64,000 bases of DNA from assembly GCA_964626055.1 (NCBI GenBank), contig CAZVDF010000012.1, positions 4,972 to 68,971 on the forward strand, given 5' to 3'. Below, one piece after another: positions 15,553-57,549 of this stretch. Each line of letters starts with the position of its first letter. The stretch's first letter is position 1. The translations under genes and the position numbers were made by a program. The notes under the pieces were generated by a model. It did not search any database, was not told where the DNA came from, and saw nothing but the letters and a program-made list of their open reading frames with translations. Source of the DNA: an uncultured Leptospirales bacterium (GTDB lineage: Bacteria > Spirochaetota > UBA4802 > JAFGDQ01).

Positions 15553-16185
15553 TCAGTTTATTTTCTTCCCCTTCGCACTGAGATTGGCGCTGATCTCTTT
15601 TGAAAATATCTCAAGGTGCTGGATAATGACCTTTACTTTTTTCGAAAAATAGTTGTTTGCCATGACGACCGGTATGGCTATAAAAAGCCCGAACGCTGTC
15701 GCGTACAGCGCCTTGGAAATGCTCCGCATCACCACTTCCGCGCCCGTGCTCCCCAGAGTTCCCAGCCCGTAGAACGCCTTGATGACTCCAAGCACCGTGC
15801 CCAGAAGACCTATGAACGGGGCGTTATTCCCCAGCGTGTTCAGGATCGTCAGCCTCTTTTCCATAAATATCTTCTCTTCAATAATTTTTCCGGACATGAG
15901 CTCCGGTAGGCTGCCCTCGTCATTTTTAGCATGATCTATTGAAAATTGCGCGAACCTGGTATACGCGTTATCGCCTGCCGCTTTTATCAGATCGGCTGAT
16001 GTTTTAAGATCGCGCTTTCTGAAAAGAGCTATCAATTCCTCCGCGAATGCGGTAATCTTTTTATTGGAATTCTTATTGAATACCATTGCTCTTTCAATTC
16101 CGACGGCAAGCGCAACTATGCTCGCGAGAATGAGCATTGAGAAAACAATTATTTCGCCGTAATCCACTAATATCAATTCGTACAT
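15553..16185 (-). CDS. exbB: ExbB/TolQ/MotA-family proton-channel protein
   Basis: 210 aa, three TM helices, conserved MotA_ExbB region (…LGTVLGVIKAF…). Confidence 0.8.
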   Translation of the reverse strand: MYELILVDYGEIIVFSMLILASIVALAVGIERAMVFNKNSNKKITAFAEELIALFRKRDLKTSADLIKAAGDNAYTRFAQFSIDHAKNDEGSLPELMSGKIIEEKIFMEKRLTILNTLGNNAPFIGLLGTVLGVIKAFYGLGTLGSTGAEVVMRSISKALYATAFGLFIAIPVVMANNYFSKKVKVIIQHLEIFSKEISANLSAKGKKIN

Positions 16186-33357: not shown

Positions 33358-33469
33358 GAAAAGACATCCGCGATAAAATGTAAGTATTGCCGCTGGATGA
33401 GAATATAAGTAGCTGACCCAAAGTTGCAATTAGCAAAATTGTGCCAGTTAAGTTAATAGGGACTAAATA

Positions 33470-34870: not shown

Positions 34871-35059
34871 ATAGCTATTTTAACTCATCCGCCTAATCCC
34901 GTGCGGAGCCTCCCCTTGGGACAAAGGAGACAGCAGTTATGAAGATTAAATGATGAACTTTTTCCAAGATGGTGCCCCCTCCGGGGGATAGGGGGTCAAA
35001 AGTCAATGATTAAAAAAGAAGAATATATTTTAATAATATAAAAGGTCAACCAGATCTTT

Positions 35060-35524: not shown

Positions 35525-35613
35525 AATGATAATTTAGTTCGGAAGAACTTAAAACTGATGAAAAATATTTTTAAATCCTAATTCCATTTTATTTAAGAGA
35601 GGAGGGACATTTA

Positions 35614-36165: not shown

Positions 36166-36179
36166 AATGGAAGTGAGTT

Positions 36180-36779: not shown

Positions 36780-36786
36780 TTCCGGA

Positions 36787-37548: not shown

Positions 37549-38996
37549 GAATATCAAAAATCCTTCCCGGTTATTTTCGCAGAATATCAATTTTAATATT
37601 TTTAATGAGCTTTAATCTTATATTCAGCGCCGCCATCTCCGCCATTGAAATTAAGCAAATGGAAATTATTGGAAGCACGATTGACCTTGATATAAAAAAA
37701 TATGTAAAAACCATTAAAGGGGATCTATCGGAGAAAGATATTGAATCGATCGGAATAAGAGTTACCAACGAATATCATAACAGGGGCTATACGACCAGTT
37801 ATGTTGAAAAGCTTGAGGTCAGCCGGAACGGAATCCTCGAAATATATGTTAAGGAATCAAAAATTGCCGACATCAGCATAACCGGCGTCGGAGGCAGGGA
37901 AAAAAGCGAGATCGAATTTTTACTGAATTCGTTAAATGGTTCTATTTACAATCGCAATGAACTTCAAAAAAAAGCGGAAACATTAAAACGGCTTTACAAT
38001 CTCGGATCAGTTCAGATTTATCCCGTAAATTACAAAGACAGCAGTGATGTCTTTCTGTCGGTAAAAATAAATAAAAAAAGCTCAGGCGATTTCTACGGCG
38101 GCATCGGATTTGAACCGATCTACGGTTTATCTCCGTACCTCGGTTATTATCATCCTTTTTCGGATACCGCGATTGACCTTTTCGCGAAAGCCGGTTACAG
38201 GGAAGGCAAATTCAGAAGAGCGGAAGGTGATGTAAAATTTTTTCTGTTCACGGACAATGAACCCAGAGGATTTTACATGGGCTCAAATGCTGCAATGTTC
38301 CTGGAGCATTGGGAATCATACGGAAGGGATTACAGAAGAATATCATTAACTCCTGCTCTCGGATACAGGGCGATATACCGGTATCTGATCATGGATATAT
38401 ACGCGAATGAAATTATTTCAGAAATTTCCGATTATAAAACCGAAGGAGAAAATTTCCGCGATTACGACACACGCATTACACTTGAAATCGAGATAACAAA
38501 CAAAATAAATCTACTTTCTAAAAAGGATGCTACCGGCCTTAAGCTCGCTGCTTCTTCCGGCAAAAGCGATCTAAGCAAAAAAGTATATGTTATCTCGTCC
38601 TGTGAGTTGAAAAGCCCTTTCTTGCCATTCAGCCGGCTCAGAATCACCCCCGGACTTTACTCATACTATACGACAATGAAAGAACGTTACTTCTGGCAGT
38701 ACGTATACGATAAAAGACTGCTGGGATTTTACGGCGATTTCACCGCGTCGAAATGGAAAAATACCGCGGGGCTCGATTTTGAATTCGAATTTATACCGCA
38801 GTTTCTTTACGCAGGTCCGTTTGTAAATACGGGATATTTCCAGGATGAAGAGCTTAAATGGAAAAGCAGGACAGGCGGCGGTATGATGGGCACACTGGAA
38901 TTTAAAAATTCTTATATCGGAATTTATTTTGCATGGGATCTCTCAAAAGGCCCGTCCAATGGCGGAGTCTCGGTAATTGCCGGCGGAAGCTTTTAA
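37545..38996 (+). CDS. POTRA-domain outer-membrane beta-barrel protein (Omp85/TpsB/ShlB-like)
   Basis: Signal peptide. POTRA-like N-terminal domain (…IGIRVTNEYHNRGYTTSYVEKLEVSRNGILEIYVKESKI…). Beta-barrel with C-terminal …VIAGGSF (terminal Phe). 4-nt overlap with the upstream gene. Confidence 0.55.
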   Translation: MRISKILPGYFRRISILIFLMSFNLIFSAAISAIEIKQMEIIGSTIDLDIKKYVKTIKGDLSEKDIESIGIRVTNEYHNRGYTTSYVEKLEVSRNGILEIYVKESKIADISITGVGGREKSEIEFLLNSLNGSIYNRNELQKKAETLKRLYNLGSVQIYPVNYKDSSDVFLSVKINKKSSGDFYGGIGFEPIYGLSPYLGYYHPFSDTAIDLFAKAGYREGKFRRAEGDVKFFLFTDNEPRGFYMGSNAAMFLEHWESYGRDYRRISLTPALGYRAIYRYLIMDIYANEIISEISDYKTEGENFRDYDTRITLEIEITNKINLLSKKDATGLKLAASSGKSDLSKKVYVISSCELKSPFLPFSRLRITPGLYSYYTTMKERYFWQYVYDKRLLGFYGDFTASKWKNTAGLDFEFEFIPQFLYAGPFVNTGYFQDEELKWKSRTGGGMMGTLEFKNSYIGIYFAWDLSKGPSNGGVSVIAGGSF

Positions 38997-41802: not shown

Positions 41803-44106
41803 GTGATATTAAACATAATTACCCTCTTTTCATGCTTTTTGATGATAATCTTTTTCAGAAGGCTTGACCGTTCCAACCTTAAAATGACAAAGCTGAAACG
41901 CTATTCCATGAAAATATTCAGCGATTTTAAAAAGCTCACTGAAAACGAATTCAGGAAATATAACGACGCAACCATAGAAATGGATATCCTGGTAAAAAAA
42001 TCCAATACGAATGCTCAGCAGTTAAAAGACACCATCTCTATAATCGAAAACAAACTTCAGACGCTCGATAATGAAAAAGAAATCCTTGTGAAAGCGGAGA
42101 ACGGCCTTAAAATAATTTCGGATTCGGCCAAAGACGTCAATAAGCAGATCGAGTTCATCGCCGGCGCGAAGGCTTCCTTTGACGATATGAGCATCCGGAT
42201 AAAATCCCTGAACGAGGATATATCACGGGTGGAAAGGGAAATATCCTCGGTGCTGCAGGCTTTTAACGAAAAAATACGCGAAAAATCGCGCAATCTTTCG
42301 GAAGAAATCGCACATAACCTGAACGAAATGAAGGAATCGATCAGGGAAAAAGAAAATTCCATGCTGGAATCATCCAGAGAGAAGATCGAGATACTGAGCA
42401 ATCAATACTTAAATACGATATCCGAAATGGAAGAAAAAATAACCAAATCCGGCGGTGCCATAATCGAAGATATGAACTTAAAACTCGAGGAAACCGCCCG
42501 GACGATAAATTCGTTTGAAAAGAAAATAGAGCTTGCCGAAAAACGCGTTACTTCGGAATTCAGCTTAAAGATAAATAAATTCGAAAAAACCCTCAATAAT
42601 ATTGAACATATCGACGACAATATCGAGCACCTTAATAACAAACTCAGAAGCGTCGAAGATGACGTGAACGAATCGACCTCAAGGCTGATTTCCACCTTCG
42701 ACGAAGAGGTCAAGAAAGCCAGACAGGAGCTTAACAATCTCGACATACATACGATCGCCAAAAAAGACGAGATCGTTAAATCGGTGCGTAAAGAAGCCGA
42801 AGAGATGAGAAACAAAATAGATAACTTTGATGATAAATATGCGGAGATAGAAAATAAAATCATTGATACCATCGATAAGGAAACGGACAGGATTAAACTG
42901 ATGATCGACAGGATCGATGAAAAATACGCAGAAACTGTCGATAAGCTGAATGAATCCGCGGAAGAAAAACTGGAAGATATACACTCCGAATATCAGACGA
43001 TGGAGATCAACTTTAACGAATTATCAAATAAAATTTCCTCGTTCGAAGACGGTTTAAAGGACTACATAGCCGAACAGACCGAAAAAACCAGGAAAGACTT
43101 TATCTTTATGGAAGAAAAGCTCACAAATATGAAGACCGAAATACTTCAATATGAAGAAAAACAGAACATATTCTCCAGAAGCGATTTGATGATCACGAAG
43201 GTGGATGATGCGGTAAACGAGTTCAACAGAATACTGAAGGAATCGAAAGAAGAAGCGAAAAAACTGGAGCAGTTCATGGAAGACGCCGATAAATTCAAGG
43301 TAATAAGCAGGGTAATCGACAAAGAGATAAAAAAATACGAGGCAAAGCAGAGCAAACTCGCGGGCTACGAGAGCGAGATCAAGGCTCTTATGGAGCTTAA
43401 CGATATTGCGGTAGCAAAAGCCGAGTCCATGGAAGACAGCATCTCGAACATAGATAAAGTGAGCACAAAAATAGACGCCCTGATGGGAACATACTCCAGC
43501 CTCGAATCAAGGATAAACGAACTTCATGAATATGAAGATTCTATTTCAAAAAATCTCGAATCTATTCAAAAGACCGATGTTGTAATAAAATCCATTGAGA
43601 GCAGAATACAGGCATTCAAGAACAATACCGAGAGATCCGAAAAGCGCGTTCAGAAGCTAATTGAATACCTCCAATCCATAGAAGAGAATACTCTGATATT
43701 AAAATCCAGGGAGCAGGAGATAAGGGACGTAAAGGACAAATTCAATGAACTTGACGGCCTTACTCGTCATATAGAGAAACGCATTGATCAGATACACGCG
43801 ATGTTCCAGAAGACGGAAGCGATGAGAGATGAGATCGACGAAACAGACGACAGGTTGAAGAAAATGTTCGACGAAACGGATAAAAAGATAAAACAATTCG
43901 CGGATATTCTTTCATCCGTTGAAGGGAACAATTTGATCGCCAGGCAGATTAAAAGCGACTACAAATTGGGAAAGAACATAAATGACAGTATGGTTAAAAC
44001 GGTAAGAGAACTTTCGAATAAAGGCTGGACTTCAAACGAGATATCGCAGAAGCTTTTAATAGACGAGAATTCCGTGAGATTTATTATAAACACTTCATCA
44101 TTGTAA
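41803..44106 (+). CDS. Large membrane-anchored coiled-coil protein with a C-terminal HTH-like segment
   Basis: GTG start with GGAGG 6 nt upstream. N-terminal TM (ILNIITLFSCFLMIIFF). ~650 aa of continuous heptad-type E/K/I/L-rich sequence. C-terminal …RELSNKGWTSNEISQKLLIDENSVRFIIN resembling sigma-70 region-4/LuxR-type HTH. Confidence 0.5.
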   Translation: MILNIITLFSCFLMIIFFRRLDRSNLKMTKLKRYSMKIFSDFKKLTENEFRKYNDATIEMDILVKKSNTNAQQLKDTISIIENKLQTLDNEKEILVKAENGLKIISDSAKDVNKQIEFIAGAKASFDDMSIRIKSLNEDISRVEREISSVLQAFNEKIREKSRNLSEEIAHNLNEMKESIREKENSMLESSREKIEILSNQYLNTISEMEEKITKSGGAIIEDMNLKLEETARTINSFEKKIELAEKRVTSEFSLKINKFEKTLNNIEHIDDNIEHLNNKLRSVEDDVNESTSRLISTFDEEVKKARQELNNLDIHTIAKKDEIVKSVRKEAEEMRNKIDNFDDKYAEIENKIIDTIDKETDRIKLMIDRIDEKYAETVDKLNESAEEKLEDIHSEYQTMEINFNELSNKISSFEDGLKDYIAEQTEKTRKDFIFMEEKLTNMKTEILQYEEKQNIFSRSDLMITKVDDAVNEFNRILKESKEEAKKLEQFMEDADKFKVISRVIDKEIKKYEAKQSKLAGYESEIKALMELNDIAVAKAESMEDSISNIDKVSTKIDALMGTYSSLESRINELHEYEDSISKNLESIQKTDVVIKSIESRIQAFKNNTERSEKRVQKLIEYLQSIEENTLILKSREQEIRDVKDKFNELDGLTRHIEKRIDQIHAMFQKTEAMRDEIDETDDRLKKMFDETDKKIKQFADILSSVEGNNLIARQIKSDYKLGKNINDSMVKTVRELSNKGWTSNEISQKLLIDENSVRFIINTSSL

Positions 44107-44137: not shown

Positions 44138-44596
44138 TTACTTAAGTCCCAGTATTTCCAGGGCGGCAGCCGGATCGATCCGGAACCTGTTCCCTGCGCC
44201 CTGAAAAAATTTATGTTCTTTGATGAGATGTATCGCCAGCCTTGTAATGATGATCTCTTTCCCCCTGATTTTATCTGTCAGAACGACTTCGCCTTTCGCG
44301 AACGCGCTGTGCCCCCTGAACGGGCATGGGATGCTCCCCCTCGATTCGTAATAGGTCGCGAATATGCCATCCCCGACTTCCGTGATGTTTCCGGGCGCAT
44401 TTACAGTCCTGTCGAATATCCCTGACAGAGCATCGGCCATGATTTCCGATGTAACGCCGGCGCTGTGCAAAAAATGTTCATCTGCGGATATAATTTCTTC
44501 AATTGTCCTGGTATCTGACCCCATAAATCCGCTGCCGGAAAATTTTGATGGCTTAAAATTGTTAAAAAGACTGCTGTCCTGGGGTGATTTTTTCAT
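44138..44596 (-). CDS. Hypothetical protein (152 aa), downstream of nqrF
   Basis: ORF with reasonable composition; no recognisable family. Confidence 0.3.
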   Translation of the reverse strand: MKKSPQDSSLFNNFKPSKFSGSGFMGSDTRTIEEIISADEHFLHSAGVTSEIMADALSGIFDRTVNAPGNITEVGDGIFATYYESRGSIPCPFRGHSAFAKGEVVLTDKIRGKEIIITRLAIHLIKEHKFFQGAGNRFRIDPAAALEILGLK

Positions 44597-44609: not shown

Positions 44610-45719
44610 TTAAAATTTATCGTAAAATATCTTTTCTTCTTTAATGCCTCCGGAAGTCAGTACTTTTATGCACGCGTTAATCATTCCCGGAGAGCCGCAG
44701 AGATAGCCTTCAAAGCCCGTCATATCCGGCAGAATTTTTTTTACTGTCTCGGTTATGAGTCCGCGCTCGCCGTTCCAGCCTGTGCCTTCGGGTTCGTTTG
44801 AGAGCGCGGGAATAAACTTAAAATCGGGCAGACTACTTTCCATCTTTTTAAGATATTCATAATAAAAAAGATCTTTCTGAGTGGCGGCACCGAAAAAATA
44901 ATATGCTTTCCTTGTGCTTCCTTTTTCCTTCATGTCCGTCAGCATGCTCAGGATCGGGGCCATCCCGCTACCTCCGGCGATAAAAACAGCCGGCGCAGTA
45001 TCGCCTGTTAAAATAAATTTCCCGTACGGGCCGGAGAAGCGGACTTCATTTCCTTCTTTCAGGTAATCAAACACCCATGTCGTGCAGATACCGTCCGGGA
45101 CCTTCCGAATTACAAGGTTGATCGAATTTATGTTTGAAGGAGAGGAAGAGACCGAATACGCCCGGATCACGCTTTCTCTTCCTTTATATTCCTCTGATTC
45201 AAGCTGAACATACTGGCCGGCCGTAAAGTCGATCTCCGCGGGTTCCTTAAGCTCAATTGTCAGTTCCAGTATATCGTGGGTAAGCGGTTTTTTTGACTTG
45301 AGGACGCCTTTAAAACGTTTTACCGAAAAGAGCTCATCCGGTATTACGATATTTATGTTTTCCCGGACTTTAACCTGGCAGGAAAGACGTATATTTTTTT
45401 TTACTTCTTCATCTGACAACGACGGCGCTTCAACCGGTCCGATCATTCCGGCGCCCGAAACAACCTGCACCTTGCAGAAAGCGCATGTACCCCTGCCTCC
45501 GCACGCGGACGGGATGAATATATTATTTTCGGCCAGAGTGGATAAAAGCGAATCCCCACCCCTGACATTAAGCTTTTTTTTGCTGTTGTTTATATCTATT
45601 GAGCATTCGCCGTAATTCAGTATCTTCTTTTCAGCCAGCAGAAGCAGCACTGAAAGAATAATGCCCATAAAGCAGATAAATCCCGCCGATATGATTATTT
45701 GTGTCCATGCGATAGTCAT
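44610..45719 (-). CDS. nqrF: Na+-translocating NADH:quinone oxidoreductase subunit F-like (TM anchor + 2Fe-2S ferredoxin + FAD/NAD-binding FNR module)
   Basis: N-terminal TM. Plant-type ferredoxin cysteines CGGRGTCAFCKV. FNR-like RAYS FAD motif and GGSGMAP NAD motif. 369 aa. Confidence 0.85.
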   Translation of the reverse strand: MTIAWTQIIISAGFICFMGIILSVLLLLAEKKILNYGECSIDINNSKKKLNVRGGDSLLSTLAENNIFIPSACGGRGTCAFCKVQVVSGAGMIGPVEAPSLSDEEVKKNIRLSCQVKVRENINIVIPDELFSVKRFKGVLKSKKPLTHDILELTIELKEPAEIDFTAGQYVQLESEEYKGRESVIRAYSVSSSPSNINSINLVIRKVPDGICTTWVFDYLKEGNEVRFSGPYGKFILTGDTAPAVFIAGGSGMAPILSMLTDMKEKGSTRKAYYFFGAATQKDLFYYEYLKKMESSLPDFKFIPALSNEPEGTGWNGERGLITETVKKILPDMTGFEGYLCGSPGMINACIKVLTSGGIKEEKIFYDKF

Positions 45720-45737
45720 ATTATTTACTATTTAAAA

Positions 45738-46343
45738 TCATATCTTTATCATTCCGGAAAACGCGACAAACGCAAGCGCCATGATGCCTATTGTTATCAG
45801 GGTAATTCCTGGCCCTGCGAGCCCGGGCGGCAGTTTGCTTTCATCGATCTTTTCGCGGATGCCCCCGATAAGCACGATAGCCAGGAACCAGCCGAATCCT
45901 CCCCCGAAACCGAACACCAGCGCCTGTATAAAAGTGTACGGCTTGCTGAGCATGAATAGCGAAATGCCCAGAATAGCGCAGTTAACAGTTATCAGAGGAA
46001 GGAAAATCCCGAGCGCGTTATAAAGCTTTTCGGAGAAGCGTTCAATTACCATTTCCAGCAGCTGGACAATGCAGGCTATCATTACAATGAACGTTATAAG
46101 GCGGAGATACTCAATGTTTAACGGCACCAGTATATATTTATAAGCCAGAAAATTAAACGCGCTCGTTAACGCGGTAACAAAGGTTACTGCAGCGCCGAGG
46201 CCGATGCTCGTATCGATTTTATTCGATACGCCTATAACCGAACACATGCCCAGGAACCTTGCGAGAAGCACGTTATTGGTCAGCGCTGAAGATATAAAAA
46301 TCAGAAGGATTGAAACAAAGGAATTCATCCCGGAAATTTCCAT
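45738..46343 (-). CDS. nqrE: NqrE/RnfA-family membrane subunit
   Basis: 201 aa, six TM, Rnf-Nqr family. Confidence 0.85.
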   Translation of the reverse strand: MEISGMNSFVSILLIFISSALTNNVLLARFLGMCSVIGVSNKIDTSIGLGAAVTFVTALTSAFNFLAYKYILVPLNIEYLRLITFIVMIACIVQLLEMVIERFSEKLYNALGIFLPLITVNCAILGISLFMLSKPYTFIQALVFGFGGGFGWFLAIVLIGGIREKIDESKLPPGLAGPGITLITIGIMALAFVAFSGMIKI

Positions 46344-46346
46344 TTT

Positions 46347-46955
46347 TTATCCCTCCTTTTTCATCTGGCGGCTGCGCGCGAACCACGTAATGACGCCCAG
46401 CATAAAAAAAGCGCCCGGCGCCATGACCATAATCGTCCACTGATGCCACCATGCGTCCCTCGCAGGAAGAGGAATCCCCAGAATAGTGCCGAAGCCGAGC
46501 GGCTCCCTTACCAGAGCTATAATTATCAGTATCATCGAGTATCCGAGCCCTGAAGCTATTCCGTCTATTAAAGATATCAGCGGTTTCTGCCTGCTCGCGA
46601 ATCCCTCGGCGCGTCCCATTATTATGCAATTGGTTATGATCAGCCCCACATACGGGCCGATGAACCTGTGTATATCAGGGCTTACCGCTTTAATGAAGAT
46701 ATCGACCATCATTACATAGCAGGCAATTATCAGCACCTGAACTATCATACGGATGCGTTTCGGTATATAATTTCTCATCGCGGAAATAGTAAGGCTGGAA
46801 AGCGCCGTGGTGAATGTGACTCCCAGGCACATGAACAGCGTATTTGCCAGCAGGTTTGTGACTGCGAGCGAAGAACAGATGCCGAGCACCTGCATGAACA
46901 CGGGGTTTTCACTGATAATATCCCTGATCATTACTTTTCCGGGGGTATTTTCCAT
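46347..46955 (-). CDS. nqrD: NqrD/RnfE-family membrane subunit
   Basis: 202 aa, six TM, Rnf-Nqr family. Confidence 0.85.
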   Translation of the reverse strand: MENTPGKVMIRDIISENPVFMQVLGICSSLAVTNLLANTLFMCLGVTFTTALSSLTISAMRNYIPKRIRMIVQVLIIACYVMMVDIFIKAVSPDIHRFIGPYVGLIITNCIIMGRAEGFASRQKPLISLIDGIASGLGYSMILIIIALVREPLGFGTILGIPLPARDAWWHQWTIMVMAPGAFFMLGVITWFARSRQMKKEG

Positions 46956-46958
46956 GTC

Positions 46959-47594
46959 TTATCTATCCTTCCTGTTCTCGTAGGATTTTTTAAACATTTC
47001 AAGTTCAGAATTGATCGCGTCCATCAGGGCAAGTGACGTCTGAGTGGCTCCCGTAATTGCATCGACCCTGTTCTTCGCGTTTACGTCCGGAGACTGGCCT
47101 ATTATTATCCGTTTTTCTGCCGGTATTGCCCAGTTAAGGTTAAGAGATCTGAACTGATCTGTGAACCATTTCTCTTCTATCCTGGATCCGAGGCCGGGAG
47201 TTTCATGCTGTTCGAGGAATACAATATTTCGTATCTGGCCCAGATCGGAAGACATGACAAGTATACCTGTTATTCTGTCCCACAGTCCGAATCCGCTGAA
47301 CACAAAACCGATATCTCCGTTTCCCCGGTTCAAGTACGTCTCAATTCTTCTTCCTTTGTACTCCAGCTCACGCGGTTTCAGCGCATACGCAACTGTCTTT
47401 TCATATTCTTCCGCGGTTGCCTCGCTGCCGATCTTAAGCAGAAAAGCCTCGGACAGAACTTTATTTTTGTGAAGAGCCTCGTTTTTCATTAAAAGCGGAA
47501 GCGTGGCATAATTGACCAAGGAAATCCCAAAGCCGAACACCATGCACAGGGAGAGTATAAATATCAGCGTATATGCCGGGGACTGCTTATTCAT
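46959..47594 (-). CDS. nqrC: NqrC/RnfG-family FMN-binding subunit
   Basis: N-terminal TM, FMN_bind domain with the covalent-FMN threonine motif …DAITGATQTS…. Confidence 0.8.
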   Translation of the reverse strand: MNKQSPAYTLIFILSLCMVFGFGISLVNYATLPLLMKNEALHKNKVLSEAFLLKIGSEATAEEYEKTVAYALKPRELEYKGRRIETYLNRGNGDIGFVFSGFGLWDRITGILVMSSDLGQIRNIVFLEQHETPGLGSRIEEKWFTDQFRSLNLNWAIPAEKRIIIGQSPDVNAKNRVDAITGATQTSLALMDAINSELEMFKKSYENRKDR

Positions 47595-48673
47595 TGATTT
47601 TCCGCCATTTTCCGTGTTTTATATCTTCTTATCCAGAGATCGAGAGACGGCGAGAATATATTGCCGAACAGTATTGCGAACCCGACCGCTCCTGCGAATA
47701 CTGATTTATATCTGAAAAAAACAATTAATGCGCCTATTAAAGAACCGTATACCCATTGCGATAATTTTTCTTTCGGCGCGCTCACCGGATCCGTTGCCAT
47801 GAATACCGCTGCGTACAATAATGCGCCCGAGAAAAGCGTAAACGGAAGGGGAGGCACCTGCGATATGCCTGCGATATTGCGCAGGATCAGATTCAGGACA
47901 ACTGCTCCTGCAATTGTTGACAGCATAAGCCGCCACTGGGCCGTCTTTGTAACCAGAAGGAAGACGCCCGCAAGTATTATGATAAAAGCGCTGACTTCGC
48001 CGATAGAACCCGCGGTAAGTATCTTCGCATATCCCTGGAATGAGAACTGACCGCCGATATTTCCAAAGAAAAGACTGCTTATATCGGCTTCAAATCCGAA
48101 GTCCCTTCTGGAAAAGATAGGAGTAGCGGCCGATATGGCGTCCGCAACCTTTACCGACGACGCAGCGGCAAGGTCTGCAGCCTGCCCGGATGAAGAGTAA
48201 GCCCACTCGGCGAGTCCTCCGGGAAATCCGCTGAATGCGGGTACAAAACTGGAAGTCATTTCAACCGGAAAAGCCACATATATAAAAGTCCTTCCTACGA
48301 TAGCCGGATTAAAAACATTTCTCCCGAATCCGCCGAACACTTCCTTCCCGAATAGTATTGCCGTAACCGCGCCTGTAAACACTATCCAGAGCGGGATAGT
48401 CGGGGGCAGCGAAAGTGCAAAAATCACTGCAGTAACAAAACACGCATAGCTGATCTTCGATTTTCTTGCAGCAGTCATTATCCATTCGGTGATAAATGCA
48501 GCCAGGATGGAGACAGCAAGGATCGCGGACACCCTCCAGCCGAAAAAATAAACCCCGGCAACCGCAACCGGCGCGAGCGCGAATATAACGCGCAGCATTA
48601 TTTTTTGTTTGAGAAATTCCGGTCTTTTCATATTTGTTTTTTTTGCGATATGTTTACAAAGAGTGCGCCCCAA
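47591..48673 (-). CDS. nqrB: NqrB/RnfD-family membrane subunit
   Basis: NqrB/RnfD helices, conserved FMN-attachment SAAT threonine motif. Start uncertain: TTG at 48673 or ATG at 48631. Confidence 0.8.
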   Translation of the reverse strand: MGRTLCKHIAKKTNMKRPEFLKQKIMLRVIFALAPVAVAGVYFFGWRVSAILAVSILAAFITEWIMTAARKSKISYACFVTAVIFALSLPPTIPLWIVFTGAVTAILFGKEVFGGFGRNVFNPAIVGRTFIYVAFPVEMTSSFVPAFSGFPGGLAEWAYSSSGQAADLAAASSVKVADAISAATPIFSRRDFGFEADISSLFFGNIGGQFSFQGYAKILTAGSIGEVSAFIIILAGVFLLVTKTAQWRLMLSTIAGAVVLNLILRNIAGISQVPPLPFTLFSGALLYAAVFMATDPVSAPKEKLSQWVYGSLIGALIVFFRYKSVFAGAVGFAILFGNIFSPSLDLWIRRYKTRKMAENQ

Positions 48674-48738: not shown

Positions 48739-49308
48739 TCAGTCGCTCCTGCTTTTTTTTTCCTCTTCTTTTTTTACTTTTTCCATGACTTCTTTCATAA
48801 TATCTTCATCGGACTGCATTTTCCTGAGAATAACCCTGTATTTTATATCGAAGCTGGCGGGTTCATTAATATTCTCCGCAAATTTGAAATTCCATCTTTT
48901 CAGATCATCGACAATCAAGCTGTTGACTTCAGAAATAGGCGCGAGGATCTTCGGCCTGATTTTCATGATCCTGCCGGTGTTATAAAGCGATACTGTTAAA
49001 ACTCCGTCGCAGGTTTCGTTTATTTTGTCATACTCTTTGAGTTTTTCCAGGACAGTTTTATCGCCTTCTTTATCCTCAATTTTTGAAAGCTTTTCCTGAA
49101 ATTTCATTTGAGAACTCTCGTACCGGTCCGACAGGATCAGTACCCTGAAGACTTCGGACGAGTCGGGATCAGGCTTAAAAAAATTCTCATACTTGCCTGC
49201 CGCACGGTCTTTAAACGACGTACTGCAGGACGGCAGAAAAGACATTGATAATACCGAATTTATTATAAGAAATACTTTAAAAAAGCTTGTATTAATTACA
49301 TGGTTCAT
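48739..49308 (-). CDS. Hypothetical secreted/lipoprotein-like protein upstream of nqrB (not NqrA)
   Basis: Signal peptide with a possible lipobox (…SFLPSC…). K/E-rich, ~190 aa. Start refined to the internal Met before the hydrophobic stretch. Confidence 0.35.
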   Translation of the reverse strand: MNHVINTSFFKVFLIINSVLSMSFLPSCSTSFKDRAAGKYENFFKPDPDSSEVFRVLILSDRYESSQMKFQEKLSKIEDKEGDKTVLEKLKEYDKINETCDGVLTVSLYNTGRIMKIRPKILAPISEVNSLIVDDLKRWNFKFAENINEPASFDIKYRVILRKMQSDEDIMKEVMEKVKKEEEKKSRSD

Positions 49309-49434
49309 GATCTTGTCATCCCTGAAGCAGCGTAATTTTATTCCTGTGAAAAGGCCCAATTATTTTTAGAATGATATAATTATTAAATATAATTTCAACA
49401 ATTTTTTATTTTAATCCGATAAGGAAGATCCCGG

Positions 49435-51074: not shown

Positions 51075-54000
51075 TTACCGCATAATTTTTCTGTCGACCC
51101 CGACAGTCTCCCTGCCGTGTCCTTCTATCATTGCGTCTACTTTCAGGTCTTTTCCGAACCTGAGCACGTTCAGCATGAATATTTCGAGTTTGTTTACAAC
51201 ACCCGGAGGGAAAAGGTTGCCGTCTATCTCGATTGACATTACCGGGTAATTGCGCTCCCTTGCCCACGGCGTGTACAGGCCTTCTATGACCCTGCCTATC
51301 AGGCAGGCGAACGGAGATATATTGACAATACCCGAGTAACTGTCTTCCATGGCAGTAGCGGCTACTCCGCTTGAAATATTGATCTCCGAATAGAGCTCGT
51401 GGCTCGCAAAATGTTTCTCGCTGTTATCCATTATATGATGCATGTGATGCGGCGATTCAGGTATCATTTTCGAAGCGCTCAATGCTTTCTTTACTTTTTT
51501 CTCAACGCTGTGTTTGTACATCTGCTCGATATTCCAGTAAATCAGATCCTTGAATTCCTTCGAGAAAAGTTTTTTATACCACGGTATCAGCTTCAGTCTC
51601 TTTTTAAGATCGTACTCGCGAACGAAATCGCAGTAGTAAAACCATTCCGTGACGCCGGATACCTTGCCTATAATGCCGCGCCTGCTGAAGTGCTGAATGA
51701 GTTCGTCAACCGCGAAATCATCCCTGCGGACATATATTTCGCCCACTATCAGAACCTTCGGTGATTCCGCAAGGGTCTTCTTCAGAGGGATCTTGGCAAT
51801 TTCTGATGCAATTTCCCTGAGAGTGGGCAGCATCTTTGTGACATCCTTCTCTGCTACCGCGAGCATCCTGTGCCAGAGCGCATCGTACCTGTCCATAGCG
51901 GATACAGGATCGGCGGCGCATGTGCGAAGCGATGTCTCTATATCCTTCATAAAGTCCGCAATAATTGCTCCCCACCACAGACACTTTGTGAAAGTCGGAC
52001 CGAGTTCCGTATACGAGTTGTCGGAATCCATTGTGAAAACAACGACATTATCCAGGCGAAGATCTTTAAACAGGTTCTCATAGAACACAAAATACTGACC
52101 GGTTCTGCACGGCCCGGTTGTTGTGGGCACGAACAGAAGATATATCTCATCTTTCCTGTATTTCGGCGAAGAGAAATACTTAAGAGCCTCGCCGAGAACG
52201 AGATGCGAAGGAAGGCACTCTTTGCCTGATGCATGATTGCGCGCAAGCTGAAGCGTATGCACATCCGGGACGGGCATTGCCTCCGCGTTCACGTTAATAG
52301 AGTTGAGCGCGGCAGCTACTAGCTCTACCGACAGCCTTCCCATGTTCGCGAGCAGTAATTTAACCTGGGGATTATTGAATATCTCTATCCTCTCGTTGGT
52401 AATGACATTTTTTATATGAATTTTCTCTTTGCCGTTATTGATAAATCTGAGACCGTTATCGTATCTCTCGGCACTCTTCTCAAGAAACTTGCTCCTGTAG
52501 CCTTCAATAATGTCAAGGAAAGCCTCAACGCGCGTATCTATGCCTGCGTCGGCTGAATGAGAGTCGAGTTCCAGGATAAGGAAAGGTTTTGTTCCCATTA
52601 TCCATTTAAGGTAATGCAGCATGAATGAGTCCGGCGCGCATGAGAAATTGCTTATGTAGGTTACGTACACATTATCCTCATTCTTGAGCAGCATGGAGGA
52701 TTTCATATCCATCTGTCCGTAATACCAGTACATGTTCGGATAGATATCCATACCGGCAAAAGGCAGAATGTCGAACGGAATTACAGAATATCCTCTGGTT
52801 GTGAACTTCCTCGGGATGCTCATGTTTGCGTCCGACGTAAAAGCATTGTACGGCCTGCCGAGAACCGCTATCACGGGTCTTTTCGCTTCACGGGCTTCCG
52901 CGAGCGCTTTTTCTCCAAGCTCCGCCGCTTTTTTGAAATATTCATTCTGCTTTTCAAGCGCTACCTCGAAGGCCAGTCTTGCTTCCCTGGCGGAAAATCC
53001 GAGCTGTTCCCCGAGTTCAATAAAAGATTCCAGGGCTTTTTCGTTTCCGTATTTAAAGGTTACAACCGGTCTGAGGATTTTTTCATCCGGAATTTCAGGA
53101 AATGCTTTCTGAATATAATACGGAAGGCTCTGGGTTATGGGGCAGAAGCAGGCATGCGTATCTTCTTCAAAGCTTTCCATATCCCTGTAATGCGGGAGGA
53201 AGATATAATCCACGCCGTGATCGAAAATATCCTGCACCGCTCCGTGGGCTATTTCCGCAGGGAAACAGTACGCGCTCTCCACCCGGGCGGTGCCTTCATG
53301 TGAAATATTTTTCGACAGGATAGTCTCAATGCCGAGCGAATGGAAAAACCATGAATAGAACGGCCACATGGTATAGACGGAAAAGCAGTTCGGGATGCCT
53401 ACGACAAAATCTTTCTTTCTGTTAAGCATGGCCGGATCCGGCGTAAAATCTTTGAACATAAGTTCATTTCTTTTTTCAACATAATCGAAGATCTCGGCTT
53501 CGTTAAAGACTTTCTTCTTTCTTATATTCGCATATTTATTGCATCTGCCGCCGAACATGTATTTGTTATCGTTAACTTTTAATATGCGTATCGGGCAGAA
53601 ATTCTCGCAAGCTTTACAGTTGAATTCGCTTTCATAAACAACATTGGTGTTTATAATTTTATCAATATCGTATTCCGATTTCGCTATTATACCGTCCGCA
53701 AATTTCTGCCTTACCAGCAATCCGACTCCGAAGCATCCCATAAGCTCCGGGTCCGGCGGTACAAGTATATTCTTGTTAAGAAGCATTGCAAAAGCAAGCG
53801 GCACCGCTTTGTTCTTCGCAACCCCGCCCTGGAGTACAATATGATTGCCTATAGTTCTGTTGCCGACTACCCTGTTCAGATAGTTCGAAACGATCGATGT
53901 TACAATACCCGCGGTGATGTCCTCGCGCGATGCGCCCTGGTGAATAGCGTTCCGGATGTCGGAATTAATGAAGGCCGAACAGTGCTCGCCGAATTTGAGC

Positions 54001-55385
54001 GGGTCTTTGGCCTGTATGGCTATATCGCCTATCTCGTGAGCGTGCATAATGTTAAGGTCGCCCTGCGCGGACTCTTCGAGGAATGAACCCGTGCCTGCGG
54101 AGCATGCCTGGTTCATCGCGTAATCGATAGGCACGATGTTCTGGAGATATATGTACTTGGCATCCTGCCCACCTATCTCGAATATTGTATCGATATCCTT
54201 TTTGTAATATGTGGTGCCAACTGCATGGGCAATGATCTCGTTATACACGGCCGGGGTTTCCAGAAAAACACCGAGAATTTCCCGCGATGAACCCGTTGTA
54301 GAACACAGTGTGATCTTTATCTTTTGATCGCCTATGTCGGCCTTTATCTGTTTTTTCATTTCAACAAGGCAGTTCTTCAAGGCAAGTACCGGATCTCCGT
54401 GCGTGCGTCCGTAAAAGGACGCAGCTACTTCGTTGGTCTCTATGTCGATAAGGCACGCTTTTGTGGTTGTCGAGCCGCCGTCTACGCCGAGGATATATTC
54501 TTTTCCGGCTTTAACCTTCGCCTTCTTGGAATCTATATATGTAACCTTTCCCTCTGCCGTCTTAAGGCTGTTAAATCTCTTAAAGTGTATCTCGGCAGGC
54601 TTGAAAAGGTTTTTGAGCGGCGGCAGAACGGTTCCCATATTCTTTGCCAGCAGCGCTGCCCCGAAAGCCTCAAAATAAGCGGCCTGTTCCGGGACAATAA
54701 AATTTATTTCCGGCAGCCTTTCGCGGATAAAAGGAACAATATATTTATTCAGCGTCACTCCGCCTGTAAGAAGAACGCTTCCTTTTGTTATTTTCGCTCT
54801 TTTCAGGAAATCGATTACCTTGGTTGCCATTACGTCGCTAAGCGAAAGAACGATGTCGCCCTTTGTCGCTTCGCCCTTGTTAAGCCTGTGCGTGCAGTCG
54901 CTTTTCATAAAGACCGAGCATCTCGATGAAAGCCTCAGCACCTTGCAGCCTTCGGGTATATGATCGATGTCATCCAGCTTCATGTCCATGCGTGCAAGCT
55001 GCTGTTTAAAAAACTCGCCCGTGCCGGACGCGCATTTGTTGCCCGAAAAATTCGTTACTATCTTTTTGTTCTCATCGATGGTGTAAACCACAAGGTCTTC
55101 GCCTCCGAGAGAAACTACCGCGTCGACATCGTACCTTATGTGCTTAAGCGCTTCCTCGATGCAGAGCGGCTCAATTACGCTGTTTACGTTCAGGAGATGT
55201 CTTCCTTCCGTGCCGGTAGCCAGCGTTTTCAGATCGGCCGGGACTTCCTTTTTTGAAAGGATGCCGTTAAGCGTATGTATAAAATTTCCGTCGTGGGTAA
55301 CGACCTCGCTCCAGAGTATTGACGTACCCTCGAGCATCGTTACCTTAACATTGGATGATCCTATATTAATACCAAGACTGTGCAT
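51075..55385 (-). CDS. Giant fusion protein: two BadF/BadG/BcrA/BcrD (HgdC-type activase) ATPase modules fused to a 2-hydroxyacyl-CoA dehydratase (HgdB/DUF2229-like) region
   Basis: 1436 aa. N-terminal GINIGSSNVK… and a second ILGVDGGSTTTKACLID… ASKHA-fold ATPase module. The C-terminal ~700 aa resembles the dehydratase D-component / CoA-substrate-specific enzyme activase-associated domains. Confidence 0.75.
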   Translation of the reverse strand: MHSLGINIGSSNVKVTMLEGTSILWSEVVTHDGNFIHTLNGILSKKEVPADLKTLATGTEGRHLLNVNSVIEPLCIEEALKHIRYDVDAVVSLGGEDLVVYTIDENKKIVTNFSGNKCASGTGEFFKQQLARMDMKLDDIDHIPEGCKVLRLSSRCSVFMKSDCTHRLNKGEATKGDIVLSLSDVMATKVIDFLKRAKITKGSVLLTGGVTLNKYIVPFIRERLPEINFIVPEQAAYFEAFGAALLAKNMGTVLPPLKNLFKPAEIHFKRFNSLKTAEGKVTYIDSKKAKVKAGKEYILGVDGGSTTTKACLIDIETNEVAASFYGRTHGDPVLALKNCLVEMKKQIKADIGDQKIKITLCSTTGSSREILGVFLETPAVYNEIIAHAVGTTYYKKDIDTIFEIGGQDAKYIYLQNIVPIDYAMNQACSAGTGSFLEESAQGDLNIMHAHEIGDIAIQAKDPLKFGEHCSAFINSDIRNAIHQGASREDITAGIVTSIVSNYLNRVVGNRTIGNHIVLQGGVAKNKAVPLAFAMLLNKNILVPPDPELMGCFGVGLLVRQKFADGIIAKSEYDIDKIINTNVVYESEFNCKACENFCPIRILKVNDNKYMFGGRCNKYANIRKKKVFNEAEIFDYVEKRNELMFKDFTPDPAMLNRKKDFVVGIPNCFSVYTMWPFYSWFFHSLGIETILSKNISHEGTARVESAYCFPAEIAHGAVQDIFDHGVDYIFLPHYRDMESFEEDTHACFCPITQSLPYYIQKAFPEIPDEKILRPVVTFKYGNEKALESFIELGEQLGFSAREARLAFEVALEKQNEYFKKAAELGEKALAEAREAKRPVIAVLGRPYNAFTSDANMSIPRKFTTRGYSVIPFDILPFAGMDIYPNMYWYYGQMDMKSSMLLKNEDNVYVTYISNFSCAPDSFMLHYLKWIMGTKPFLILELDSHSADAGIDTRVEAFLDIIEGYRSKFLEKSAERYDNGLRFINNGKEKIHIKNVITNERIEIFNNPQVKLLLANMGRLSVELVAAALNSINVNAEAMPVPDVHTLQLARNHASGKECLPSHLVLGEALKYFSSPKYRKDEIYLLFVPTTTGPCRTGQYFVFYENLFKDLRLDNVVVFTMDSDNSYTELGPTFTKCLWWGAIIADFMKDIETSLRTCAADPVSAMDRYDALWHRMLAVAEKDVTKMLPTLREIASEIAKIPLKKTLAESPKVLIVGEIYVRRDDFAVDELIQHFSRRGIIGKVSGVTEWFYYCDFVREYDLKKRLKLIPWYKKLFSKEFKDLIYWNIEQMYKHSVEKKVKKALSASKMIPESPHHMHHIMDNSEKHFASHELYSEINISSGVAATAMEDSYSGIVNISPFACLIGRVIEGLYTPWARERNYPVMSIEIDGNLFPPGVVNKLEIFMLNVLRFGKDLKVDAMIEGHGRETVGVDRKIMR

Positions 55386-55515: not shown

Positions 55516-57549
55516 TTATGTAAATCTGCTCTTTAAATAAAATGAAATTATAACAAGATACAAAAATACAAGCAGTACGGCTTTATGTTCATAAACCGGC
55601 TTTTCTTTTTCTATATGTTCCGATACGCGAACCGGACCTGCCATGCTGATGCCTTCAAGCGCAGCGGCGAATGTGTTTTTATCCGCTTCTACAAATTTGC
55701 CGCTTCCTCTCTCCGCAAAATTCCGCAGGTACTCCTTTCCGGCCGGAAGATATAAATGTTCATGCCATTTTTTCTCGTGATAATTTAAAAGCTGATATTT
55801 ATCTATAATCCGGCCGTTCTGCTCGATCGAAATATTTACAAGCCTGCCGTCGCTTTCCGTGAACGGATAAGGATTTGACGGTTTCAGGACAATATCCTTC
55901 AAAATCCTGCCGTCATAATCCGTCAACTGTATCTTCGCGTAAATATCGTTTTCGGAATTGATATAATTATTCTCAAAGGCAACGCTGCCGTTGCTGACAG
56001 CTACGGGCATAGAAGAGATCCCCAGAACATAGCGTACCAGCGACTTCAGGGCGGTTTCATTCGGTATTCGCGCATTATACGAAAATTTCCAGAAAGAATC
56101 CGTCAGTACGGCGAGCACTCTTGCCTTTTCCCTGATGCCGCCGGTAATAACCGGAAGACCGTTCCCCGTGCTGTAAAAAACATTTGCCCAGCTTTTCAGC
56201 TTAACCCTGTTAAGACCTTTGATTTTTATTCCGTGAATGGCATTCAGACCTGCGAGAGGCGTGTAACCGGACTGTACGTTCCGTATTACGTCGAATTCCC
56301 TGTTATCGTAATTCTCTCCTGCCGGGGGCACAAACGGCAGCACGGATTCGAATTTATTTGAAAGATAATCTTCGCGCTTGAACGATTCCGGGCCGCCTAA
56401 AAGCAGAAGTCCTCCGCCCGATTCAACGAATTTCACGATATTATTTATATAATATACATTTAAGAACCGGGTTAATTGAAAATCGTTTATAATGATCAGA
56501 TCGAAATTATCAAGCTCGTCCCTGAAAAGCTGATCAGTCGGGAATGGGATCAGGCTGAGCTCGCTATCCTTTGTCTTGAAAACCTGAACATTTGTCCGAA
56601 GGATATAGAAGGATATCATGTCAACGCCGGGTATGTTCTGAAGACCTCTCCTGATGAACGCAGTGTCCGGCGAAGGATGACCGCTTATATGAAGCACCCT
56701 GAATCCCCTGTATATCCCTTCGATCACGGCGAAGTCTTTATTGTTGGCCGTTACAATTTCACGCGAATCGACCGCGACCGAAGCTTCAAGCAAATTCACT
56801 CCTGTATTTTTGATTACAAGCTCAATGCCGCCCTGGCCGTAACCGTCTTTAAGATGCACAAGCGCCGCGCCCGTATTCTTGCCGTTAAGCTTAATATCCA
56901 CGGGGACGGTTTCAAGTCCGGTGCCGGGCGCGCTCACTGAAAAATATATTTTCTCTTTTGAATATTTCGGAATAAACCTCGGCGCCTTTACGATAGAAAC
57001 CGATTTATCGAACCTGACCGCGCTATTGCCGGTATTTAAATAGACGACATTATAAGGATATTCCCCCGGCAGACTCATATTATTTTTAAGTTCATCAATA
57101 TTCTCAGTCTCGTTGCCGTCCGTTATCAGCACAAATCCGGAAATGTTTTCCCCGCTATAGTTGCCGGATATATACGCGAGGACGTTTTTTAGAGATTTGA
57201 TAATGGCTGAAGACTCCGCACCCTCAGCACCGCCGGCCCGATCAGAGAAGGGAATAATGTCCAAATTATAATCTTTCCAGATTCTATCTGCGATATCCCT
57301 GAAATCGTGCATTTTCAATCCGGCGCCGGCCACGCTGGCGGAAACGTCAAAGGCGGCAACGACAGTCCTTCTTACGGCTGCCTGTTGCTTTATGCTGATC
57401 CTGTATTGAAGCCCGAATAAAATCAGTAAGACAATAATAATAAGCGTATCTGCCGCGAAAGCAATTCTGGCCCAGGACTTATCCCAGGGAAGCCTTAACA
57501 CATAAACCGAAAGTACGAGCGCAATTGCGGCTGTTATGAAGAATATCAT
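55516..57549 (-). CDS. Membrane protein with N-terminal TM helices, vWA-like segment and class-I glutamine-amidotransferase-like (DUF1355-type) domain; BatA-like cluster member
   Basis: 677 aa. …VVAAFDVSASVAG… then …VLHISGHPSPDTAFIRRGL… and …ESGGGLLLLGGPESF… GATase1-like motifs. Confidence 0.45.
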   Translation of the reverse strand: MIFFITAAIALVLSVYVLRLPWDKSWARIAFAADTLIIIVLLILFGLQYRISIKQQAAVRRTVVAAFDVSASVAGAGLKMHDFRDIADRIWKDYNLDIIPFSDRAGGAEGAESSAIIKSLKNVLAYISGNYSGENISGFVLITDGNETENIDELKNNMSLPGEYPYNVVYLNTGNSAVRFDKSVSIVKAPRFIPKYSKEKIYFSVSAPGTGLETVPVDIKLNGKNTGAALVHLKDGYGQGGIELVIKNTGVNLLEASVAVDSREIVTANNKDFAVIEGIYRGFRVLHISGHPSPDTAFIRRGLQNIPGVDMISFYILRTNVQVFKTKDSELSLIPFPTDQLFRDELDNFDLIIINDFQLTRFLNVYYINNIVKFVESGGGLLLLGGPESFKREDYLSNKFESVLPFVPPAGENYDNREFDVIRNVQSGYTPLAGLNAIHGIKIKGLNRVKLKSWANVFYSTGNGLPVITGGIREKARVLAVLTDSFWKFSYNARIPNETALKSLVRYVLGISSMPVAVSNGSVAFENNYINSENDIYAKIQLTDYDGRILKDIVLKPSNPYPFTESDGRLVNISIEQNGRIIDKYQLLNYHEKKWHEHLYLPAGKEYLRNFAERGSGKFVEADKNTFAAALEGISMAGPVRVSEHIEKEKPVYEHKAVLLVFLYLVIISFYLKSRFT

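Follow-up and report, generated by a model that had tools for sequence, protein, structure and literature searches.

A conserved sixth gene in an NqrA-less RNF/NQR-family operon of a Leptospirales bacterium: a candidate ion-translocating NADH:rubredoxin-type oxidoreductase

One ancient family of redox pumps is regarded as having two functional forms, RNF and NQR. A 64,000-nucleotide stretch of DNA from an uncultured Leptospirales bacterium (assembly GCA_964626055.1, contig CAZVDF010000012.1; the whole stretch is referred to here as the window) carries an operon of this family that encodes homologues of NQR subunits B, C, D, E and F, and neither NqrA nor RnfC. Such a locus raises the question of what, if anything, takes the place of the missing subunit, and to which acceptor the electrons entering at an NqrF-type module would be delivered. 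The operon was found to contain a sixth conserved gene, here termed X, and to belong to a widespread group of BCDEF-X clusters that appears to be a sister lineage of canonical NQR. We propose that the six gene products form an NqrA-less pump of the RNF/NQR family, acting as an ion-translocating NADH:rubredoxin-type oxidoreductase, with X as the subunit on which the acceptor docks. Judged from sequence and gene neighbourhood, this proposal could as easily turn out to be right as wrong.

All six genes lie on the reverse strand. Subunit B (NqrB/RnfD homologue; 48673..47591) comprises 360 residues when read from a TTG codon and matches PF03116 (NQR2_RnfD_RnfE; E 8e-79); an alternative ATG start at 48631 gives 346 residues, near the family median of 347. 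It is followed by subunit C (NqrC/RnfG homologue; 47594..46959; 211 residues), which has an N-terminal membrane anchor and a PF04205 FMN_bind domain, by subunits D (NqrD/RnfE homologue; 46955..46347; 202 residues) and E (NqrE/RnfA homologue; 46343..45738; 201 residues), both of PF02508 (Rnf-Nqr), and by the NqrF-type subunit F (45719..44610; 369 residues), in which Pfam recognizes Fer2, FAD_binding_6 and NAD_binding_1 domains. An earlier note on this DNA had described five consecutive, overlapping genes of the nqrB-C-D-E-F type on one strand. The positions of the open reading frames (ORFs) and their Pfam matches agree with the five genes, but an overlap is present only between B and C (4 nucleotides), and the C-D, D-E and E-F junctions are gaps of 3, 3 and 18 nucleotides, respectively. 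Moreover, the operon does not end with the fifth gene, as had been supposed: the 152-codon gene X (44596..44138) starts 13 nucleotides past the stop codon of F, and its counterpart stands directly after F in 62 of 66 related loci.

The related loci come from a scan of one genome per species, which gave 139 relatives, of which 80 loci, mostly from metagenome-assembled genomes (MAGs), were kept. Where sufficient upstream sequence was available (the same 66 loci), B-C-D-E-F-X are colinear on one strand in all but four, with a median F-X gap of 15 nucleotides, and the layout noted in a single window is thus a recurrent one in related MAGs. The hosts span more than ten phyla and include Spirochaetota, Fibrobacterota/Chitinivibrionales, Candidatus Brocadia, Pirellulales, Sedimentisphaerales, Neomarinimicrobiota, Desulfobacterota, Verrucomicrobiota, WOR-3, Thermotogota, Clostridia and Cloacimonadota, among others. 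The cultured Ilyobacter polytropus DSM 2926 has the same six-gene set, annotated with a mixture of Rnf and Nqr names plus a 'hypothetical protein'. The window proteins share 45-79% identity with members of the BCDEF-X clade versus 28-50% with NQR and RNF references, and the best named matches of F are from Spirochaetota (64-68% identity). The conserved cofactor ligands and the intact ORFs seen across phyla indicate that the cluster is under selection. One Candidatus Brocadia MAG departs from the common layout (locus L017, 5700-8250), in that B, C and D are replaced by two opposite-strand ORFs of 459 and 231 residues while E-F-X remain; the stretch contains 21 Ns and represents either a disrupted operon or an assembly artefact.

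Gene X has no Pfam or NCBIfam match of its own. A Pfam comparison of 50 members of the X family at E<=1 returned just three weak matches to DUF7919, and with three of 50 members matching weakly X is not assignable to that family. The idea that X might be a remnant of NqrA or RnfC was likewise rejected (hhalign probability 0.2%), and a fold search of the PDB for X returned no match. The family itself is large. An exhaustive profile search at E<=1e-3 recovered 1594 clusters at 50% identity, nearly all of them stand-alone proteins of about 150 residues. Unannotated genes encoding 154-155 residues, located after B-C-D-E-F in one Spirochaetota genome and in Candidatus Brocadia, are 49% identical to window X. 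Three very long proteins without Pfam domains (P0140, 885 residues; P0256, 2506 residues; P0269, 945 residues) contain three or four X-like stretches each.

The AlphaFold (AF2) model of X consists of two helices, a six-stranded sheet and two further helices, with a predicted local distance difference test score (pLDDT) of 84.5 and a predicted TM score (pTM) of 0.79. The N-terminal 20 residues show strong conservation (MK.SP..., PSKFS..GFLG.D.R), although the confidence of the model is low there. In 50 diverse members, the positions that are invariant or nearly so are F24, D28, D39, G87, P92, K101, L120, H123, H128, F130, G133, R139 and P142. No hydrophobic segment is present (maximum KD19 0.88), and X is a soluble protein. 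On the basis of the model and the alignment, these properties would suit a docking protein that has no cofactor and binds a partner through its conserved tail, with a bound flavin or metal being possible.

The cofactor sites of the other five subunits are retained. Subunit F has an N-terminal transmembrane helix (KD19 2.74), a plant-type 2Fe-2S ferredoxin domain and an FNR-like FAD/NAD(P)H domain; its ligands and binding motifs are CGGRGTCAFC at 73-82 (Cys73, Cys79 and Cys82) with Cys114, RAYS at 186-189 and GGSGMAP at 249-255. In subunit D, Cys27 and Cys110 align with Cys29 and Cys112 of Vibrio cholerae NqrD, the ligands of the intramembrane 2Fe-2S cluster, and Asp131 aligns with NqrD Asp133. 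In subunit E the 2Fe-2S ligands are Cys34 and Cys122, which correspond to the equivalent pair of NqrE, and Glu97 falls within an LEMV motif. The covalent flavin mononucleotide (FMN) sites conform to the ApbE-type flavinylation motifs, which take the form DxxSxAT in B (DAISAAT at 178-184, Thr184) and DxxTGAT in C (DAITGAT at 178-184, Thr184, with the threonine aligned in the PDB matches). The motifs that the earlier note had quoted for F (RAYS, GGSGMAP), B (SAAT) and C (TGAT) are therefore all present in the translations. Since the ligands and flavinylation motifs of F, D, E, B and C are all kept, the transmembrane path from the 2Fe-2S cluster of F via the D/E 2Fe-2S cluster and the FMN of C to the FMN of B is expected to be intact and is predicted to be functional.

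The overall similarity of the subunits is divided between the two known complexes. Subunit B scores 216.8 bits with the NCBIfam rnfD subfamily model (cutoff 207.05) and 200 bits with nqrB (cutoff 414), and its PDB matches to RnfD (7zc6_D, 125 bits) and V. cholerae NqrB (123 bits) are equal. Its architecture is RnfD-like: in an alignment with NqrB of Klebsiella, Neisseria and Prevotella, the stretch before the first transmembrane helix is 29 residues long instead of 59, and the insertion of about 50 residues that follows this helix in NqrB is missing. For C, the scores are 71.6 bits with nqrC (cutoff 144) and 46 bits with rnfG (cutoff 102), the PDB matches are weak (Acetobacterium woodii RnfG 41 bits, NqrC 33-38 bits), and the protein is RnfG-sized, about 45 residues shorter than NqrC. 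The earlier statement that the sizes of B and C are nearer to those of Rnf than of Vibrio Nqr holds good. Subunit D leans towards NQR (nqrD 227 bits, cutoff 235; rnfE 163-169 bits, cutoff 213; PDB matches NqrD 174.5 bits versus RnfE 127.8 bits), and E gives similar values with rnfA (222.1 bits, cutoff 229.3) and nqrE (214.7 bits, cutoff 247.55), as in its PDB matches (RnfA 189 bits, NqrE 182.6 bits). Subunit F scores 269 bits with nqrF (cutoff 295), the next-best family being MmoC (177 bits), and alignment showed that two insertions common to all canonical NqrF proteins are missing from it. None of the five subunits reaches its NCBIfam Nqr equivalog cutoff; the sole cutoff passed is that of the rnfD subfamily, by B. 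As a local feature, the B proteins of the window and of Brocadia share a site (residues ~205-220 of the window protein), before the conserved GSIGE motif, that carries a 14-residue insertion, GGQFSFQGYAKILT; none of the other aligned A-less members has an insertion at this site, and neither do the NQR and RNF references.

The relationship to both complexes was examined in phylogenetic trees. D and E are ancient paralogues, and a neighbour-joining (NJ) tree of both (56 sequences, 185 columns, 100 bootstraps, sampling 28 loci) was rooted by letting each half root the other. The A-less clade was monophyletic with bootstrap values of 92 (D) and 69 (E), canonical NQR with values of 95 (D) and 98 (E), and the two together excluded RNF with values of 99 (D) and 92 (E). 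Subunit B fell into three clans (A-less, NQR and RNF) with support of 100 each, the A-less clan being approximately equidistant from the other two. In all 100 bootstraps, subunit F grouped with NqrF and apart from BenC, AntC, phenol-hydroxylase-type and MmoC-type reductases. The trees of the B, D and E subunits, which the earlier note had named as a way of telling the cases apart, thus place the operon in a separate clade and not within canonical NQR with a displaced nqrA. Taken together, the BCDEF-X clade appears to be a sister lineage of canonical NQR that lies outside RNF and retains Rnf-like features. The label 'Rnf/Nqr intermediate-type' is partly apt, in that the complex has the look of a basal, Rnf-like version of a pump with NqrF (an RnfD-like B, an RnfG-sized C, an F without the two insertions).

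Evidence for the absence of an A subunit was obtained at several levels. Pfam found no NqrA, RnfC or ApbE domain in 30 window ORFs of 209-1436 residues, and a tblastn search of the whole 64-kb window with reference NqrA, RnfC, RnfB, ApbE and NqrM sequences gave no match, although a very divergent NqrA could escape such a search. With the same reservation, the 84 related loci were likewise without a tblastn match to NqrA, RnfC or NqrM within 10 kb. The sole RnfB-like matches among these loci were small 2x[4Fe-4S] ferredoxins on the opposite strand at Brocadia loci. ApbE adjoins the operon in just three of the 84 loci, and would have to be encoded elsewhere. The earlier report of no NqrA or RnfC gene with the operon and no ApbE in the window is thereby confirmed, as is its description of the gene upstream of nqrB as lipoprotein-like and neither NqrA nor RnfC: this ORF (49359..48739) has an LPSC lipobox and a weak match to the Leptospira LA_2219 lipoprotein family (65 bits versus a cutoff of 285). 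The lipoprotein was considered as a possible part of the system and rejected, as no counterpart exists in any of 83 related loci. At the other end of the operon, a 767-residue ORF rich in Glu, Lys and Ile (41803-44106, forward strand), coiled-coil in appearance, is convergent with X and marks the operon 3' end. A scan for promoters and terminators around the operon gave signals no better than those of shuffled sequences, and an Rfam search near the operon found no riboswitch or other RNA.

In V. cholerae the N-terminus of NqrB (Phe34-Leu54) anchors NqrA, NqrA holds the soluble domain of NqrF, and NqrB's N-terminal segment (Met1-Lys54) forms the pocket of the quinone/inhibitor site (10.1101/2022.04.19.488743). 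The A-less B is about 30 residues shorter at its N-terminus, which would fit the loss of both NqrA and the canonical quinone site. NqrA is homologous to RnfC (PMC4014512; PMC12174285) and RNF is the outgroup, so the common ancestor should have had an A/C subunit, and its absence from BCDEF-X would therefore be most simply a loss. The lack of the A subunit is accordingly best described, if the sequence relationships are read correctly, as more parsimoniously a loss or replacement than an ancestral state. This bears on the suggestion in the earlier note that Nqr arose from Rnf by acquiring NqrF. A sister clade possessing NqrF is in keeping with it, but the missing A subunit is likelier to be a loss than a relic of a stage before NqrA. 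The clade constrains the origin of NQR from RNF, in that the gain of NqrF would have come first, ahead of the quinone site and of the insertions in NqrB and NqrF.

An indication of the electron acceptor comes from the genes that accompany X and the operon. Neighbour families were defined by clustering the genes within 4 kb of the operon, and their assignments were confirmed with Pfam. Recurrent neighbours were desulfoferrodoxin (10 loci), flavodiiron-type proteins (eight loci) and several rubrerythrin/ferritin-like families, together with Fur-family regulators, thiol peroxidase (Tpx), thioredoxin, Hsp20 and glucose-6-phosphate dehydrogenase. The density of desulfoferrodoxin, flavodiiron-type, rubrerythrin, ferritin, Fur-family and Tpx genes, here grouped as oxidative-stress genes, was 13.3 per 100 kb within 4 kb of the operon versus 4.8 per 100 kb at 4-10 kb, and at least one such gene was found near the operon in 25 of 84 loci, in many phyla and in differing arrangements. 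In seven loci a canonical rubredoxin gene follows X on the same strand at a distance of 26-130 nucleotides, and in one locus such a gene stands directly upstream of B.

X also occurs in fusions. An X-rubredoxin fusion fills the slot after E-F on two independent contigs (for example locus L101, 1786-2418), an X-nitroreductase fusion sits in the same place after E-F (L104, 2080-3081), and an X-rubrerythrin-like fusion (L103, 463-1395) follows an F gene with the typical ...YDKF end. A fusion of an N-terminal peroxiredoxin to X was also seen, on a short contig (L105, 25-771). In three loci, BCDE are absent and a soluble F of 337-344 residues without the N-terminal transmembrane helix is followed directly by X (L029, 8700-10184; L036, 8968-10453; L063, 3570-5206), the last of these pairs adjoining a flavodiiron protein. 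In the F tree these soluble variants arise twice, nested inside membrane-type F clades. Because soluble F+X pairs occur without BCDE and are nested in this way, F and X work together. In locus L083, X lies between ferritin/rubrerythrin-like genes and rubredoxin with no adjacent F. X thus keeps recurring with F and with rubredoxin-type acceptors. Two further neighbours were recorded. Glucose-6-phosphate dehydrogenase is encoded near X in six loci, mostly downstream on the same strand (for example L078, 10644-12188, and L083, 1639-3315), and this link could indicate NADPH rather than NADH as the donor. A DUF2400 protein recurs in seven loci, in five of them downstream on the same strand (for example L051, 10630-11484).

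In the mechanism that we propose, NAD(P)H would be oxidised at F, passing electrons to flavin adenine dinucleotide (FAD) and then to the 2Fe-2S cluster. From there they would travel via the D/E 2Fe-2S cluster and the covalent FMN of C to the covalent FMN (and presumably also riboflavin) of B, and this path probably drives the export of Na+ or H+. The electrons would then leave on the cytoplasmic side, to an acceptor protein that is soluble or tethered, instead of to quinone at the NqrA/NqrB site. The acceptor would primarily be rubredoxin, which would feed superoxide reductase, flavodiiron O2/NO reductase and rubrerythrin, and X would be the cofactor-less docking subunit that replaces RnfC/NqrA. 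The span from NADH to rubredoxin is ~0.3 V by textbook potentials, comparable to that from NADH to menaquinone in the Prevotella-type NQR, and for this reason pumping with a rubredoxin acceptor is energetically plausible. That X is a physical subunit, which partner it binds, that ions are pumped and which acceptor is used in this organism are all points that we infer.

Several observations weigh against this mechanism. Oxidative-stress genes are near only ~30% of loci and an in-operon rubredoxin is present in only ~10%, and in the window itself no rubredoxin gene was found and no oxidative-stress gene stands beside the operon. The enrichment of such genes was measured against the distal flank of the same loci, not against whole genomes, and the trees were built from distances, with four references each for NQR and RNF. 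Across the 50 diverse members X has no conserved Cys or obvious cofactor motif, and so cannot itself carry electrons unless a flavin or metal is bound unseen. The soluble F+X pairs suggest that electrons could exit at F, bypassing the membrane path and pumping. Finally, the Brocadia and Pirellulales hosts make menaquinone, which leaves room for quinone reduction.

An alternative view is that the complex is still an NADH:quinone (menaquinone) oxidoreductase, with quinone reduced at B and X acting as a structural substitute for NqrA, for instance by anchoring the soluble domain of F. The co-occurrence of F and X even without BCDE would suit such a role, as would the menaquinone of the Brocadia and Pirellulales hosts, and genes for an electron-transfer flavoprotein (ETF) and an ETF-quinone oxidoreductase lie near the Brocadia operon. 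Canonical NqrA has no cofactor, and the riboflavin of NqrB passes electrons straight to quinone (PMC12174285). The established structural roles of NqrA are those of the partner anchored by the NqrB N-terminus and of the holder of the NqrF domain, and the second could be taken over by a small F-binding protein. However, the elements of NqrB that build the quinone/inhibitor pocket are incomplete in B, which is without the insertion and a portion of the N-terminal stretch, and the fusions of X to rubredoxin, rubrerythrin-like and nitroreductase proteins, like the in-operon rubredoxin, would be left unexplained. Furthermore, many of the hosts, namely Thermotogota, Fusobacteriota, Clostridia and fermentative Spirochaetota, are generally taken to be without quinones. 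Published notes on A-less clusters came to a like conclusion (PMC4148951, PMC5924567). We therefore consider a menaquinone reductase to be an unlikely identity for the complex, if one to be taken seriously.

It is improbable, in our estimate, that X instead serves the assembly or maturation of F or of the complex, as a functional counterpart of NqrM or of ApbE-type accessory genes, with the acceptor being something else. X is small, soluble and without a cofactor motif or a PDB fold match; it is encoded at the operon's 3' end, the place of apbE and nqrM in canonical nqr operons, and no NqrM homologue is found near any A-less locus. For a maturation factor, however, one would not expect repeated fusion to various electron-acceptor proteins in a single operon slot, nor the retention of a rubredoxin gene immediately downstream even where no F is adjacent (L083). 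The idea that the operon is an ordinary Na+-NQR whose nqrA has been relocated in the genome, or a decaying remnant of one, is scarcely credible. With 64 kb of the source genome in view an nqrA elsewhere is possible, but neither nqrA nor rnfC was found within 10 kb in any of 84 related loci (0/84), complete genomes with the cluster are reported to be free of nqrA (PMC4148951, PMC5924567), each of the five subunits scores under its NCBIfam Nqr equivalog cutoff, and the clan of each subunit is separate from canonical NQR. Decay is further opposed by the conserved ligands and the intact ORFs across phyla.

Returning to the proposed NADH:rubredoxin-type oxidoreductase, its relation to known systems may be summarized as follows. 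It resembles canonical NQR in its NqrF entry module (transmembrane helix, 2Fe-2S cluster, FAD/NADH sites), the four Cys of D/E, the flavinylation Thr of B and C and the B-C-D-E-F gene order, and its D, E and F cluster with the corresponding NQR subunits, not with RNF or with oxygenase reductases. It differs from NQR in the lack of NqrA and of a nearby nqrM, the missing insertions in B and F, the shorter C and the extra gene X, and in an acceptor that is probably not quinone. With RNF (RnfCDGEAB; Clostridium tetanomorphum 7zc6, A. woodii 9eri, Azotobacter vinelandii 8ahx) it shares the length and architecture of RnfD in B, the size of RnfG in C, an E that is as similar to RnfA as to NqrE, and hosts that are mostly anaerobes; in contrast to RNF, it has no RnfC and no RnfB polyferredoxin, its entry module is of the NqrF type and its D and E branch with NQR. 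The soluble NADH:rubredoxin oxidoreductase (NROR) of Clostridium, Thermotoga and Pyrococcus is alike in the proposed overall reaction and in the type of gene neighbourhood, by analogy and not homology. NROR is a single soluble flavoprotein of unrelated fold, whereas the present system would be a membrane complex of the RNF/NQR type able to conserve energy. The soluble F+X pairs (L029, L036, L063) would be the closer analogue of NROR.

An NqrF-bearing complex without an A subunit had been called unusual in the earlier note; it proves to be widespread and to have been described already. NqrBCDEF without NqrA was reported in Thermotoga (Pseudothermotoga) thermarum and lettingae in 2014 (PMC4148951) and noted for Clostridium ultunense and P. 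lettingae in 2018 (PMC5924567), the acceptor being left open in both cases, and nqrB-F are listed in Miniphocaeibacter (PMC9558581). These published clusters have the same five genes in the same order, with nqrA missing from complete genomes, and are apparently of the same kind; Thermotogaceae, Kosmotogaceae and Clostridia loci (L057, L062, L069) fall within the BCDEF-X family. They differ as published in that five genes are listed and X is not mentioned, its presence there being deduced from related MAGs. A further partial system derived from NQR/RNF with an NAD-binding module is the 'NQR/RNF-like' system of Meheust et al. (2021), a single NqrB/RnfD-NAD-binding fusion found mainly in Actinobacteria and the candidate phyla radiation (CPR), for which one-way electron export was proposed; the same authors defined NQR by NqrF alone (PMC8238504), and BCDEF-X clusters were presumably counted as NQR by them. 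A 2025 review of RNF and NQR makes no mention of an NqrA-less form (PMC12174285). The bare observation of NqrBCDEF without NqrA is hence not new; the new parts are the sixth gene, the placement of the clade and the link to rubredoxin and oxidative stress. No literature on these three points was found in a search outside which most subscription-journal papers fell, and prior work may exist.

More broadly, and tentatively, the RNF/NQR family might have in BCDEF-X a third and widespread functional branch, one that works independently of quinone as an ion-translocating NAD(P)H:acceptor-protein oxidoreductase and in which the X adaptor plugs rubredoxin, rubrerythrin-like or nitroreductase proteins into the pump. 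Doubtful as this generalization must be, 'strict anaerobes' would thereby gain a short energy-conserving chain to O2 and reactive oxygen species (ROS), with flavodiiron proteins, superoxide reductase and rubrerythrin as terminal reductases in hosts without quinones or cytochromes. With the cross-phylum clade, its sixth gene and the links of X to rubredoxin-type acceptors, an annotation oddity becomes a testable hypothesis, namely that many anaerobes couple the detoxification of O2 and ROS to ion gradients without quinones, and cultured carriers (I. polytropus, Pseudothermotoga, C. ultunense) make the biochemistry feasible.

The remainder of the window holds several other features. At 55516-60947 (reverse strand), 7 kb from the operon, a MoxR-type AAA ATPase (PF07726), a DUF58 protein, a 539-residue DUF4159 protein and a 677-residue protein without a Pfam match form a row that we take to resemble the Bat or 'aerotolerance'-type clusters of Bacteroides and Leptospira, and this row may be relevant to the oxygen-defence reading. 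A Na+/Pi cotransporter gene (61147-62769, reverse strand) stands beside that of a thioredoxin-reductase-like Pyr_redox_2 protein (62956-63825, reverse strand), and the former hints at a sodium cycle in this organism. Between the operon and the MoxR row, 51075-55385 (reverse strand) encodes a 1436-residue protein with two BcrAD/BadFG ATPase domains and a DUF2229 ('CoA enzyme activase') domain, which is predicted to be a large fused activase of the radical dehydratase/benzoyl-CoA reductase type. The genes at 10212-26137 have the appearance of a region for the uptake of metals, corrinoids or siderophores: they encode two TonB-dependent receptors, two Peripla_BP_2 binding proteins, a FecCD permease and an ABC ATPase, together with a DUF364/DUF4213 'heavy-metal chelation' protein and MoeA. 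Within the same interval, a full-length match (model positions 1-168) to the TwoAYGGAY RNA motif (RF01731), a family without an established function, was found at 15383-15532 (forward strand) with 51.3 bits against a gathering score of 43, just upstream of an opposite-strand ORF (15553..16185). Lastly, a fliF-fliG-fliH-fliI block at 29356-38996 (forward strand) is followed by several small ORFs and a 483-residue ORF without a Pfam match (37545-38996).

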